In this document: piece after piece, positions 48 through 4,079 of the stretch | How the letters are laid out: the number at the start of each line of letters is the position of its first letter | How positions within the stretch are numbered: position 1 is the first letter of the stretch | Virus record (IMG/VR): IMGVR_UViG_2671180680_000011 | From: a virus | Taxonomy: Duplodnaviria; Heunggongvirae; Uroviricota; Caudoviricetes | Strand: one strand, 5' to 3' | DNA: 4,079 nt | Translations under genes and position numbers: made by a program | Notes under the pieces: model-generated | Told to the model about the DNA's origin: nothing | Seen by the model: the letters and a program-made list of their open reading frames with translations, nothing else | The model's database searches: none

Positions 48-401
48 TTAAAAAAAGAACAAATGGTAGTGTCCGCTATTGCCAGTACACCTCAATTGCT
101 CTGCGGCTTCGCTCAGAGCTGGCGTATGTTCCCGGCCTACTGATTCACACAGGTAATCAACGAAACCGGACACCAGTTTTCGTTCGCGAGGCGTGATCGC
201 CCCACCGACCGGAGTCCAGTAATCGAAACCCAGTTGCAGGAGTTTGAAAAAACGCTTGTGGAATGCGTAGTTACACACACGCTTAAAGTCTGCGTGTATC
301 CACTCACCTATTTTGATTTGATGCAGAAAATCGCAACTCTCCGGCGTCGCCGGGAGAAGTAATCCGGAAGAGGTTTGTTTGACCAGTTGTATATGTGCCA
401 T
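48..401 (-). CDS. Hypothetical protein, 117 aa from the ATG at 401 (alternative 131-aa form from a TTG at 443); second gene of a two-gene operon
   Basis: Long ORF on the minus strand. The internal ATG at 401 is preceded by GGAGA about 6-7 nt upstream; the ORF-track start at 443 is a TTG overlapping the upstream stop. No family recognised (sequence contains FDYWTPVGG and a Cys/His-rich C-terminus). Confidence 0.5.
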   Translation of the reverse strand: MAHIQLVKQTSSGLLLPATPESCDFLHQIKIGEWIHADFKRVCNYAFHKRFFKLLQLGFDYWTPVGGAITPRERKLVSGFVDYLCESVGREHTPALSEAAEQLRCTGNSGHYHLFFF

Positions 402-439
402 CGGCTTTCTCCGGTGGCACGGTGTTACACAGCAGGAGT

Positions 440-727
440 TCAATCCTGCTCAAGATTGTAGATGAGTTTATTCTTCAGCAAAAGCAGAAAACCAGCCTTA
501 AAACCAATCTCTTTCAAAACCCGTAATGATGTGACAAATTCGTCCTCACGCAAAATAAAACCGTCCGTCAGAAGTCCATTACAAAAATAAAATAACACAG
601 CACCGCTCTTCCTTTGTTGAGATTGCAAACATCTAATGCGGCAATGGCTGACAATCGCTCCATTCTCAACGCGCACAGCATAGAGGCCATTTTCACTAAA
701 AATTTCACGCAATTCTTCGATTTTCAT
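440..727 (-). CDS. Hypothetical protein, 95 aa; first gene of a two-gene operon
   Basis: ATG at 727 preceded by AAGGA about 8 nt upstream; stop TGA at 440-442; candidate promoter upstream at 809-836. No family recognised. Confidence 0.5.
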   Translation of the reverse strand: MKIEELREIFSENGLYAVRVENGAIVSHCRIRCLQSQQRKSGAVLFYFCNGLLTDGFILREDEFVTSLRVLKEIGFKAGFLLLLKNKLIYNLEQD

Positions 728-808
728 CTTCAGAATCCTTCCAGATAAATAGCTCTCCCCTGTTCGGGGTCCATCCCTCTTCTCCCTGCGCGCTACTTAA
801 GTGAGTCG

Positions 809-836
809 ATTCTATCTGCGAAGGTGCGCGAATCAA
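809..836 (-). promoter_or_regulatory. Putative sigma70 promoter for the 95-aa/117-aa operon (TTGATT, 16-nt spacer, TAGAAT)
   Basis: Read on the minus strand: -35 TTGATT (plus 831-836) and -10 TAGAAT (plus 809-814), placing the start about 75 nt upstream of the ATG at 727 and just downstream of the hok terminator. Confidence 0.3.
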
Positions 837-846
837 ATTCACCGGA

Positions 847-901
847 AATAAACAACAAAAAACCCGCCGAAACGCTGAGAGATCACAGCGATGGGCGGGT
901 T
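847..901 (-). terminator. Rho-independent terminator for the hok/mok transcript
   Basis: Minus-strand RNA forms an 8-bp outer stem (861-868 with 894-901) around an inner 5-bp stem (873-877 with 886-890), followed by a U-rich tract (complement of plus 847-860, AATAAACAACAAAA). Confidence 0.55.
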
Positions 902-940
902 AAGTGCGGGTGCGTTGAGGATGCCTGACACATCAGAGGT

Positions 941-968
941 GGGCGGGGATGGGATCAGCTCCCCGCCC
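941..968 (-). promoter_or_regulatory. GC-rich stem-loop just 3' of the hok stop; candidate hok mRNA 3' structural element (fbi/tac-like)
   Basis: Perfect 9-bp inverted repeat GGGCGGGGA (941-949) and TCCCCGCCC (960-968) with a 10-nt loop, 9 nt downstream of the hok stop codon; no U-tract follows, so not itself a terminator. Confidence 0.35.
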
Positions 969-976
969 GGTCACTC

Positions 977-1132
977 TTACTTCCTGGATTCGTAGTCTAC
1001 GAAGACAGCGACCTCCGTCTGGCCGGTTCGGATTCGTACCTCACAGAGGTCTTTCCTCGTTACCAGTGCCGTCACTATGACGGTTAAACAGATGACGATC
1101 AGGGCGATTAACATCGCCTTTTGCTGCTTCAT
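977..1132 (-). CDS. hok: Hok/Gef-family type I toxin, 51 aa, small membrane peptide
   Basis: Translation MKQQKAMLIALIVICLTVIVTALVTRKDLCEVRIRTGQTEVAVFVDYESRK closely matches chromosomal Hok/Gef/RelF toxins as recalled (single TM helix, conserved R-K-x-L-C-E motif); AAGGAG Shine-Dalgarno about 7 nt upstream of the ATG at 1132. Confidence 0.85.
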   Translation of the reverse strand: MKQQKAMLIALIVICLTVIVTALVTRKDLCEVRIRTGQTEVAVFVDYESRK

Positions 1133-1189
1133 AGCCTGCTTCTCCTTGCCTTTCGGCATGTAAGAGGCTAACCTACATGTGCAAAGCAT
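977..1189 (-). CDS. mok: mok-like reading frame (in-frame N-terminally extended ORF covering hok)
   Basis: ATG at 1189 with GAGG about 8 nt upstream; the extension MLCTCRLASYMPKGKEKQA resembles the extension of chromosomal mok frames as recalled. Confidence 0.5.
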   Translation of the reverse strand: MLCTCRLASYMPKGKEKQAMKQQKAMLIALIVICLTVIVTALVTRKDLCEVRIRTGQTEVAVFVDYESRK

Positions 1190-1245
1190 GAAATTGGCCT
1201 CAGATTAATGTTAAGCGTCTTGCCGGACGCGTAATGTTAACTGGG
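1175..1245 (+). ncRNA. sok: Putative sok-like antisense RNA covering the mok start; coordinates approximate
   Basis: Position inferred from hok/sok architecture. Weak plus-strand promoter candidate TTGCCT (1146-1151), 17-nt spacer, TAACCT (1169-1174); hairpin 1215-1230 downstream. No clean terminator seen. Confidence 0.2.
1206..1240. repeat. 9-bp direct repeat TAATGTTAA (1206-1214 and 1232-1240) flanking a hairpin (GCGTC 1215-1219 with GACGC 1226-1230) in the hok leader/sok region
   Basis: Exact repeat and inverted repeat read directly from the sequence; function unknown. Confidence 0.3.
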
Positions 1246-1308
1246 GCTTTTCTCTATCTGCCTTTTGGTGTTCATGCCTGAAGCAGATAGCCTCAAGCAC
1301 CCGCAGTC

Positions 1309-1338
1309 ATTCTACTTACCTCGCCAATATGAAATCAA
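1309..1338 (-). promoter_or_regulatory. Putative sigma70 promoter for hok/mok mRNA (TTGATT, 18-nt spacer, TAGAAT)
   Basis: Read on the minus strand: -35 at plus 1333-1338, -10 at plus 1309-1314; predicts a leader of about 110 nt before mok and a transcript of about 450 nt ending at the 847-901 terminator. Lies immediately 3' of the QueH-like stop. Confidence 0.35.
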
Positions 1339-1359
1339 TCAGAAAGGTGCCCCATAAAA

Positions 1360-2046
1360 TCACTCCTTCTCTTCTTTACCGTAGTGGAGTTGACCAATTT
1401 TGATAAGAGGGCGTCCCTGAGATTTGCGGTGTAGATTGGTATCGCGCAGAGAATACACACAGCCACAATATTCCTGCTGATAGAATTTTTCGCGCTTGCT
1501 GATTTCAATCATACGGGACGAGCCGCCCTGCTTGCGCCAGTTATAATCCCAGTACACCATGCCCGGATAATGCGCGACGGCTCGCCGCCCACAGTCGTTA
1601 ACCTGCTGCATATTTTTCCAGCGTGAAATGCCCAGTGAACTGCTGATCACACTGAAACCATTTTCAGCGGCGTACAGCGCTGTCCGCTCAAAACGCATGT
1701 CAAAACACATGGTGCAACGGATCCCTCGTTCGGGCTCCCATTCCATTCCTTTGGCTCGTTCAAACCAGTTGTCTGTGTCGTAATCAGCATCAATAAACGG
1801 CACGCCGTGTTGTTCAGCAAAGCGAATATTCTCATCCTTACGAATTAAATACTCTTTCTGAGGATGAATGTTCGGGTTGTAGAAAAAGATGGTGTAGTCG
1901 ATTCCCGAGGCCTGAAGCGCCTCCATCACCTCACCGGAACATGGAGCACAGCAAGAGTGCAGTAGTAGTTTGTTTGCCCCGTTTGGGAGCTCCAATTTGG
2001 GCCGTTTGAAATCAGCAACTGTCATAAATATGTTTATTGGGGTCAT
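1360..2046 (-). CDS. queH: DUF208/QueH-family protein (epoxyqueuosine reductase-like, Fe-S), 228 aa
   Basis: Contains the family-typical motifs [38 protein letters not shown] and YCGCVYS. Start is uncertain: ATG at 2046 or 2025, neither with a strong Shine-Dalgarno. Stop TGA at 1360-1362. Confidence 0.8.
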
Positions 2047-2107
2047 AAAAATATCAAAGAGTGTAGCATTAGAACGGGGCTATCGGAAACAGATGTGTGA
2101 CTGCTCC

Positions 2108-2123
2108 CCGCCCTTTCGGGTGG
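2108..2123. other. GC-rich hairpin in the intergenic region upstream of the QueH-like gene
   Basis: CCGCCC-TTTC-GGGTGG (6-bp stem with one G-U pair); on the minus strand the loop reads GAAA. No U-tract on either strand, so not a canonical terminator. Confidence 0.2.
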
Positions 2124-2193
2124 TCTCCTGATGATTTGAGGGTGCAGAAATCCCTCCGGTTAAGGATTAAATTTTTAACAGTGCTAAATTTAA

Positions 2194-2550
2194 TTATTCA
2201 GTTCTGGATTTTGTCGCCCTGCGTATCCGCGCTTTCGCGTTACGCTCAATCTGTATCAGCTTTTCTATATTTCTCCGCCTTTCCTGTTCCTCCTGGCGCA
2301 ATAGCCTTACATCATCTGCCAGTCTGGTTTCTCTTTTTGCCACAGAGAGCATCCAGTCAAACGGCTCCACAACCGCACCGCAGATTTTACAGCGGACCTG
2401 ACGCTCTTTTTCGTCAACCCGTACAGAGGCGTGATGGCAATATGGTCTTTCCGATGGCTCATAAAGAAAATTAACCTGATTACGAGGGTCATCCTCTTTT
2501 ACCGGAAATAAAACGATATTGCTTAACTCATCTTCTGGTTTTATTTCCAT
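2194..2550 (-). CDS. Hypothetical small protein, 118 aa, with a putative Cys/His zinc-ribbon-like motif and a charged C-terminal coiled-coil-like tail
   Basis: ATG at 2550 preceded by a strong AAGGAGAGGAG Shine-Dalgarno (AGGAG 6 nt upstream). An in-frame alternative ATG at 2607 directly abuts the upstream stop (TGAATG). Motif C-H-H, 12 residues, C-x2-C; tail rich in R/E/K. No family recognised. Confidence 0.6.
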   Translation of the reverse strand: MEIKPEDELSNIVLFPVKEDDPRNQVNFLYEPSERPYCHHASVRVDEKERQVRCKICGAVVEPFDWMLSVAKRETRLADDVRLLRQEEQERRRNIEKLIQIERNAKARIRRATKSRTE

Positions 2551-2607
2551 GCTCCTCTCCTTTGATGCGAATGCCAGCGGTAATTGAAGCCTGATAGCTA
2601 ATTTCAT

Positions 2608-2830
2608 TCACAGTATCGCCTCCTGAAAATTACCCTGATAGAAAGCCAGTACACGCTGCATAGCTTCGCTCTTCCGGCACTCGCGACAGATTATATTCAG
2701 GCGCCTGTCGTAGCGGCGTATTTCTCCGTCAGGTAATGACCAGATAAGGTCCGGATCAACAACAACCGGTTTCCTCACCTTTACTCTCGAGAGTTTTTTG
2801 CGGGCGCTTTGCCAGTCCTTGCGAGCCTGT
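2608..2830 (-). pseudogene. 3' fragment of a gene truncated by the IS911-like insertion (73 host-encoded codons)
   Basis: The reading frame is open right up to the IS boundary at 2830/2831 with no internal start; the ORF-track start is a GTG at 2856 inside the left inverted repeat. Stop TGA at 2608-2610 overlaps the next gene's alternative ATG. Confidence 0.45.
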
Positions 2831-2866
2831 TGAAGTGGCACACTGAATTTGGCCACCTGAACAGAG
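2831..2866. repeat. Left terminal inverted repeat (IRL) of the IS911-like element
   Basis: TGAAGTGGCACACTGAATTTGGCCACCTGAACAGAG; first 8 nt and the GGCCACC core match the reverse complement of the right end. Confidence 0.8.
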
Positions 2867-2902
2867 GTGATATGCTCACCTCAGAACAACACAGGTGCTC
2901 CA

Positions 2903-4079
<1,177 letters not shown>

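Follow-up and report, generated by a model that had tools for sequence, protein, structure and literature searches.

Does the minus strand of the viral record IMGVR_UViG_2671180680_000011 (IMG/VR; Caudoviricetes) carry a hok/mok/sok-type type I toxin-antitoxin locus with toxin, leader and antisense RNA all intact in sequence, as its letters suggest at first sight? A sequence-only reading of this DNA had described such a locus as apparently intact. Here, we follow up that reading element by element; "the window" denotes the whole stretch of DNA analyzed, 4,079 nt in length.

Positions 855–1338 of the window, minus strand, are a complete, sequence-intact hok/mok/sok cassette, and the match is far beyond chance. 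Every point examined agrees, from the toxin and leader families through mok, the hok and sok promoters, tac/fbi and the ucb and dcb sequences to the hairpin and terminator at the 3′ end, and every element listed in the sequence-only reading was found in its place on the minus strand. No difference from relatives was judged disruptive. By far the best explanation, and one we hold with high confidence, is that the nin region of what remains of a lambdoid prophage, most likely from Shigella flexneri or closely related E. coli, carries a sequence-intact type I toxin-antitoxin cassette. The cassette belongs to the hokW/hokD subgroup found in lambda-like prophages of E. coli and Shigella, a kind that is known, annotated and characterized by experiment. 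It is an ordinary representative with nothing new about it; RefSeq already contains an annotated copy of identical sequence.

The hok toxin gene and the mok reading frame

The coding part of the cassette comprises four features.

977–1132, minus strand: hok toxin gene, 51 aa, stop included (Pfam HOK_GEF match, identities to HokW and HokD)
1142–1147, minus strand: Shine-Dalgarno sequence of hok, AAGGAG, 9 nt before the hok ATG (read from the sequence)
977–1189, minus strand: mok frame, 70 aa, extends hok in frame at its N-terminus, stop included (ORF list)
1198–1201, minus strand: Shine-Dalgarno sequence of mok (SD-mok), GAGG, transcript nt 102–105, 8 nt before the mok ATG (read from the sequence)

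The last 51 codons of the 70-aa frame (977–1132) encode the Hok peptide MKQQKAMLIALIVICLTVIVTALVTRKDLCEVRIRTGQTEVAVFVDYESRK. It matches the Pfam profile HOK_GEF (PF01848) over its full length (profile positions 1–42 of 42; 79.9 bits with a cutoff of 22; E 9.8e-23), and with AAGGAG placed 9 nt upstream, the proposed Hok-family ORF with a good Shine-Dalgarno sequence is borne out. The peptide is identical to HokW at 50 of 51 positions, to K-12 HokD at 46/51, to HokC at 39/51 and to R1 Hok at 24/52; residue 50 is Arg here and Glu in HokW. These identities answer the question of subtype that the sequence-only reading had raised: toxin and locus are near-identical to hokW and hokD and lie in a prophage context, which places the cassette in the hokW/hokD subgroup. 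The hok Shine-Dalgarno sequence is kept in 14 of the 15 sequences of our alignment of relatives (alignment A1), the E. albertii copy having AAGGGG.

The in-frame mok-like extension with its own ribosome-binding site, also proposed earlier, is likewise present as the 70-aa frame at 977–1189 with GAGG 8 nt upstream. Mok shares 67 of 70 residues with MokW as annotated in phage 933W.

The hok promoter and the leader family

Transcription of hok is predicted from the following elements.

1333–1338, minus strand: hok promoter −35 hexamer, TTGATT (promoter scan)
1309–1314, minus strand: hok promoter −10 hexamer, TAGAAT (promoter scan)
855–1302, minus strand: predicted full-length hok mRNA, ~448 nt (+1 at G1302 from position 1 of the Rfam model; 3′ end in the T-run 855–860)

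A plausible hok promoter had been suspected, and the promoter scan returned TTGATT-18-TAGAAT at 1338→1309, a σ70-like site with 9 of 12 consensus matches. It is one of only two promoter-like sites in 780–1420, where shuffled sequences lead one to expect 0.6. Of the 12 intact hokD/hokW-type relatives in alignment A1, 8 share the −10 hexamer TAGAAT and the rest have variants such as TACAAT and TAAGAT. The −35 hexamer is not conserved in relatives; in the same alignment, homology to other loci begins near the −10 hexamer. Compared with the E. ruysiae and E. albertii copies, the window has a 10-bp deletion between the stop codon of the QueH-like gene and the −10 hexamer, and TTGATT replaces TTGGCG as the −35 element in register.

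The leader (1302→1127) matches the Rfam family RF01794 over the entire model (1–157 of 157; 117 bits, gathering threshold 59; E 3.5e-27). This is the sole Rfam match in the window; it reads in the direction of hok and stops at the hok AUG. An R1-type locus scores 87 bits with the same model. That the ORF and hairpins resemble a toxin-antitoxin locus by chance, with no such locus present, has next to no probability: nothing was found in its favor, and it is refuted by the Pfam match (E 1e-22), by the Rfam match (E 3.5e-27) and by thousands of homologous annotated loci.

The full-length mRNA is predicted to fold into a closed form

In characterized hok mRNAs, pairing of tac with fbi closes the full-length molecule, and ucb sequesters SD-mok in the closed form (PMC9841398). 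All three elements have counterparts here.

1291–1302, minus strand: tac element, GGGUGCUUGAGG, 5′ end of the hok mRNA (pairs with 908–920 in the minimum-energy fold; conserved in relatives)
908–920, minus strand: fbi element, CCUCAACGCACCC (12 bp with tac, one bulged C; minimum-energy fold)
1243–1249, minus strand: ucb, anti-SD of mok, AAGCCCC (SD-mok partner in the minimum-energy, closed fold; tac partner in the open form)

The minimum-energy fold was computed on the predicted 451-nt transcript (1302→852). Nucleotides 1–12 (1302–1291) pair with nucleotides 383–395 (908–920), forming 12 bp with one bulged C, and SD-mok is paired with the GCCCC box at nt 56–60. Folding of the transcript, which had been suggested as a check, thus yields a molecule closed by tac/fbi with ucb and SD-mok paired. 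An R1-type control locus has the same fold architecture, with the tac/fbi pairing seen in the whole-transcript fold. The tac/fbi duplex has an energy of −21.5 kcal/mol and lies at the family-typical position.

The other suggested check, conservation of the pairing elements, gave a concordant result for tac/fbi. We took the 5′ ends of 20 further loci from their Rfam matches and searched each locus for the best duplex partner of its first 14 nt. In 18 of the 21 loci this partner lies 45–56 nt past the hok stop, the same position as in the window. The loci span Escherichia, Photorhabdus, Pantoea, Erwinia, Kluyvera, Kalamiella and Pseudocitrobacter, and in most of them the duplex energies are far below those of shuffled controls. 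For two loci, L040 and L031, and for the R1-type locus run as a simple duplex, the search returned no fbi.

The pairing also covaries in distant relatives. Across 16 distinct sequences, the outer six tac/fbi pairs are 100% paired, as compared with 25–59% for slid partners; the formal count stops at these six because MAFFT aligned the short tac/fbi segments without opening a gap at the bulge. For the inner pairs, we tabulated the partners seen in the duplex predictions. Pair 4 occurs as U-A (9), C-G (5) and U-G (2), and pair 12, tabulated in this way, as G-C (10), A-U (4) and G-U (1).

Removal of the 3′ end is predicted to lower the cost of the open form

Trimming of the 3′ end of hok mRNA lets tac pair with ucb and SD-mok with dcb, which produces the translatable, Sok-sensitive form (PMC9841398). 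A dcb core can be assigned in the window.

1164–1168, minus strand: dcb core, GCCUC (predicted SD-mok partner in the open hairpin targeted by Sok; pairs checked, open fold modeled)

The complementarity that the open form would use is present base by base: tac and ucb can pair as G1-C60, G2-C59, G3-C58, G5-C57, C6-G56, U7-A55 and U8-A54, and SD-mok and dcb from G102-C139 through C106-G135. Unconstrained folding of the 3′-truncated RNA gave a local 5′ hairpin instead of the tac/ucb stem, and the R1-type control behaved likewise; we therefore used constrained folding and compared energies. The energy cost of the open form, with both tac/ucb and SD-mok/dcb enforced, is +19.7 kcal/mol for the full-length RNA and falls to +2.7 to +5.7 kcal/mol after removal of fbi. 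Truncation at the 3′ end thus makes the open form ~14–17 kcal/mol cheaper; in the truncated R1 control the cost is +3.5 kcal/mol. These modeled energies are consistent with opening after 3′ trimming, though not proof of it.

The 3′ hairpin and the terminator

Two further structures occupy the 3′ region of the transcript, and direct folding found both, in keeping with the GC-rich stem-loop and intrinsic terminator described in the sequence-only reading.

941–968, minus strand: GC-rich 3′ stem-loop, expected 3′ end protector of the processed mRNA (−20.9 kcal/mol, z −3.25)
855–901, minus strand: intrinsic terminator, interrupted hairpin 861–901 plus T6 at 855–860 (−22.8 kcal/mol, z −5.4)

The role of the stem-loop as a 3′ end protector is taken from PMC9841398. 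Relatives have a hairpin at the same position with different stem sequences. A simple terminator scan found nothing in 780–1420 because the stem of the terminator is interrupted by an internal loop, which the scan does not model. The terminator loop contains a 23-nt insertion relative to most sequences in alignment A1; this exact variant occurs in 27 IMG/VR contigs and in only two complete E. coli genomes.

The predicted Sok antisense RNA

The antitoxin RNA is predicted on the opposite strand.

1181–1252, plus strand: predicted Sok antisense RNA, about 71–76 nt (start by homology to annotated sokW and sokC)
1146–1151, plus strand: sok promoter −35 hexamer, TTGCCT (identical to annotated sokW of 933W)
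1169–1174, plus strand: sok promoter −10 hexamer, TAACCT (identical to 933W; 17-bp spacer)

Annotated sokW and sokC both begin opposite the ninth nucleotide of mok, which corresponds to plus-strand position 1181 in the window. The spacer of the sok promoter differs from that of 933W by one base. The promoter scan did not call this promoter, whose −10 hexamer TAACCT has only 3 of 6 consensus matches; since the scan missed the weak −10, we placed the promoter by homology to annotated sokW and sokC. The predicted RNA begins with a free, single-stranded 5′ tail, continues as a long hairpin and ends in a U-rich tail (fold energy −30.2 kcal/mol, z −4.8). Its last 55 nt are identical to SokW (55/71), and 7 of the first 16 nt, in the 5′ tail, differ.

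A Sok RNA on the minus strand, as the strand of the Rfam "sok" match might imply, was considered and rejected: the model is written for the hok leader itself, read in the hok direction as far as the hok AUG, and the genes annotated as sokW and sokC are encoded opposite hok.

Relationship to known hok loci

The 506-bp region is 100% identical in two complete E. coli genomes, where PGAP annotates the product as "type I toxin-antitoxin system toxin HokD" (WP_014532198.1). Copies at 90–95% identity with at least 80% of the region covered are present in 3823 of 5426 complete E. coli genomes, and 79 phage records carry the region, including 933W and VT2-Sakai (Sp5) with annotated hokW, mokW and sokW.

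The hokW/mokW/sokW loci of 933W and Sakai prophage 5 (AF125520, AP000422; PMC8621323) show ~91–92% DNA identity over 898–1325. They share with the window identical tac and fbi sequences, identical Sok promoter hexamers, an identical Sok hairpin and terminator, and an extra small leader hairpin relative to hokC. In contrast, the 933W sequence diverges after fbi, where the window has as its terminator the hairpin with the 23-nt insertion, and the 933W locus lies near attR whereas that of the window lies in the nin region, between the QueH-like and rem-like genes.

K-12 hokD (relF, in the Qin cryptic prophage) belongs to the same toxin subgroup, with a rem homologue downstream that is 68% identical, and has the same fbi and terminator core. 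Its homology to the window covers 395–1146, that is, from the rem-like gene to just upstream of the hok Shine-Dalgarno sequence. Beyond this point, relBE takes the place of tac, ucb, the mok start, sok and the hok promoter, whereas the window keeps a complete leader. Because the homology ends at 1146, the window holds the complete cassette and K-12 hokD is a 5′-truncated copy. The window therefore displays the complete form of the truncated K-12 gene, with leader, mok and sok, in a comparable prophage position.

The K-12 hokC/mokC/sokC locus (gef) follows the same cassette plan, with mok in frame and Sok starting opposite the ninth nucleotide of mok; DNA identity is 75% over 949–1304, and tac is identical. 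It differs in having no 18-nt GC hairpin in the leader/Sok stem and in its 3′ region, which does not align with the fbi of the window; IS186 lies directly downstream of hokC. The hok/mok/sok locus of plasmid R1, the reference system, resembles the window in its element set, in its predicted closed fold (tac/fbi, ucb/SD-mok, 3′ hairpin) and in the cost of the open form after truncation, but it is plasmid-borne and its leader has diverged.

A sequence-intact cassette in a prophage remnant

The window is a 2.7-kb prophage remnant between two insertion sequences.

1–92: end of IS600, cuts the DUF1367 gene
2832–4079: IS911, cuts the DUF977 gene

E. coli FDAARGOS_943 has a lambdoid prophage that matches window positions 95–2831 at 99.8% identity and in which the genes for DUF977, a hypothetical protein, the QueH-like protein, hokD, the rem-like protein, DUF1367, DUF1364 and DUF1133 follow each other on one strand. 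The nearest genome matches are S. flexneri SFBU1023 and an E. coli genome (Mok 100%; DNA 99.65% over 2595 bases).

The sequence-only reading had found an intact copy notable beside an IS911-like element. This emphasis does not stand. IS911 lies ~1.5 kb upstream of the hok promoter, inside the DUF977 gene; the same cassette occurs in the same gene context without IS911 in FDAARGOS_943, and its 90–95% identical copies are found in the 3823 E. coli genomes counted above. The IS neighborhood says nothing about hok because neither element touches the cassette. For similar reasons we rejected IS911 as an element that inactivates or drives hok: the gene that it interrupts is a different one, ~1.5 kb upstream, and the E. 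coli copy that is otherwise 99.8% identical lacks IS911.

Read-through from the QueH-like gene had also been raised. The stop codon of this gene (1360–1362) lies 21 nt upstream of the hok −35 hexamer, and the terminator scan predicted no terminator between the two, so that read-through into hok is possible on sequence grounds. It is not, however, predicted to activate Hok or unlock translation by itself: modeled transcripts with 5′ extensions of 60 or 148 nt keep the closed fold with tac/fbi and ucb/SD-mok.

Is a cassette in such surroundings still active? Despite its intact sequence, it could have no physiological activity left and ride along, decaying, in a defunct piece of prophage, neither killing nor stabilizing anything. 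The prophage around it is broken, with the DUF1367 gene cut by the IS600 end and the DUF977 gene by IS911, and the hok −35 hexamer is supplied by local context, shifted by the 10-bp deletion. Moreover, according to work cited in a recent catalogue of Hok homologues (bioRxiv 10.1101/2025.08.07.668861), some intact-looking chromosomal hok loci gave no post-segregational killing, which was reportedly absent for hokA, hokB and hokC. Against silence, every regulatory element is in place, 840–1345 is 100% identical to the FDAARGOS_943 copy with zero mismatches, a single residue separates the toxin from the experimentally toxic HokW, and toxicity was recorded for 42 of 45 diverse homologues assayed for the catalogue. 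We regard a silent cassette as unlikely.

As a sequence-intact hok/mok/sok cassette, the locus provides one more example of a toxin-antitoxin module that stays intact while insertion sequences erode the prophage around it. Earlier publications on hok loci of chromosomes and prophages already deal with both this point and the complete form of hokD, and the locus has little importance beyond its correct annotation.

Proposed mechanism and possible roles

Homology to R1 hok/sok and Sp5 hokW-sokW suggests how the cassette may work, a scheme that our analysis supports in silico only. The moderate promoter would produce a stable hok mRNA of ~448 nt. Pairing of tac at its 5′ end with the 3′ fbi would lock the mok ribosome-binding site against the upstream anti-SD ucb, so that neither Mok nor the translationally coupled Hok would be made. 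Slow 3′ exonucleolytic trimming would take off the terminator and fbi; tac/ucb would then form, and SD-mok would join the dcb hairpin, which would be both translatable and a target for Sok. Sok, an unstable antisense RNA from the opposite strand, would pair with the mok start region and lead to cleavage by RNase III. Once the supply of Sok stops, the 51-aa Hok would be made and would damage the inner membrane.

In Sp5, HokW is toxic, and sokW transcribed from its own promoter neutralizes it, an antitoxin activity aided by RNase III and Hfq (PMC8621323). Prophage induction removes the sokW RNA, HokW accumulates in the inner membrane, growth arrest is advanced and phage release is doubled (PMC8621323). 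More broadly, Hok is found in almost 80% of Enterobacteriaceae genomes and is enriched in prophages (bioRxiv 10.1101/2025.08.07.668861).

By analogy with Sp5, the locus might serve as a phage lysis aid rather than an addiction module, with loss of Sok upon induction allowing Hok to help lysis and phage release. Its orientation in the intact relative fits this role, being that of the early-right operon (replication genes, QueH-like, rem-like, DUF1367, DUF1364, DUF1133). However, IS911 upstream and IS600 downstream interrupt the prophage, which makes an induction-linked role unlikely for this copy, and the position near attR in 933W indicates that genomic location is not conserved. We consider a lysis role conceivable, with the balance of evidence tilting against it.

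The divergent 5′ tail of the predicted Sok bears on specificity. Since Sok is cis-encoded, it is automatically complementary to its own mRNA, and the differences from SokW in the tail could limit cross-talk with other copies. Carried further, they may mark off a specificity class of its own, so that several cassettes of the hokW type could share one genome without cross-protection, in which case this still-armed cassette could stabilize the IS-bounded remnant against deletion; we regard this extension, suggested by the sequence of the tail, as quite improbable. At least four hokW-type cassettes are present in the single genome of S. flexneri SFBU1023.

Sequence variation across the hok cassette

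Alignment of the hok cassette with those of its relatives (alignment A1, 15 sequences) revealed that the window has a 10-bp deletion between the QueH-like stop codon and the hok -10 element (1315-1345, minus strand) when compared with the copies of E. ruysiae and E. albertii. In the same alignment, hok cassettes residing in differing contexts share homology that begins only at about the -10 element; therefore, the -35 hexamer comes from the DNA flanking the cassette.

The predicted antisense RNA diverges at one end. In its 5' tail (1181-1196, plus strand), the predicted Sok departs from SokW, as annotated in 933W, at 7 of 16 positions, whereas the other 55 nt are identical. This divergence may reflect differing specificity among hok cassettes that share a genome.

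At the 3' end of the hok transcript, the terminator carries extra sequence:

861-901, minus strand: hok terminator hairpin with a 23-nt insertion, CCATCGCTGTGATCTCTCAGCGT

The insertion, which introduces a second helix, occupies the position at which most relatives have a TTCG tetraloop. Precisely this terminator variant is present in 27 contigs of IMG/VR, whereas just two of the 5426 complete E. coli genomes carry it.

Within the Hok reading frame, codon 47 is TAC and is followed by G, creating a UACG motif inside CUACGAA (991-994, minus strand). A-to-I editing by TadA, which changes Tyr to Cys, has been reported at this type of motif in the hokB, hokC, hokD, and hokE mRNAs. Local fold prediction places the motif of the window in a stem and not in a loop.

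The rem-like gene downstream of hok

Two further features lie downstream of hok:

440-727, minus strand: rem-like ORF, 68% identical to the K-12 Qin protein Rem
809-836, minus strand: promoter-like site TTGATT-16-TAGAAT ahead of the rem-like ORF

Both hexamers of this site (TTGATT and TAGAAT) are those of the hok promoter.

Insertion sequences at the ends of the window

Each end of the window is occupied by an insertion sequence:

1-92: terminal part of an IS600 that matches annotated copies of this element at 100% identity
2832-4079: IS911-type element, complete, carrying orfA and orfB together with a frameshift site (A AAA AAG) near 3147

The IS600 end truncates a DUF1367 gene; of the 198-position profile, the remaining ORF (48-401) matches positions 1-102 only. 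In S. flexneri SFBU1023, the same IS600 end is located 62 bp deeper in the DUF1367 gene than in the window; the window therefore carries either an adjacent 62-bp deletion or an independent insertion.

The IS911-type element begins with TGAAGTGGCACAC, and its last base coincides exactly with the end of the window. It cuts a DUF977 gene, of which the C-terminal part alone remains (2608-2856), whereas this gene is whole in E. coli FDAARGOS_943.

Hok cassettes in other loci

Loci from Photorhabdus temperata (L024) and Pseudocitrobacter faecalis (L043) contain two to three tandem matches to the hok leader family RF01794 inside ~1.3 kb:

L024: RF01794 matches at 1413, 2042, and 2660
L043: RF01794 matches at 1348 and 1866

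Both series resemble tandemly arrayed hok cassettes. In three Photorhabdus and Erwinia loci (L026, L031, and L045), matches to the Rfam family sRNA-Xcc1 (RF02221) lie 1-1.3 kb or less from hok cassettes.
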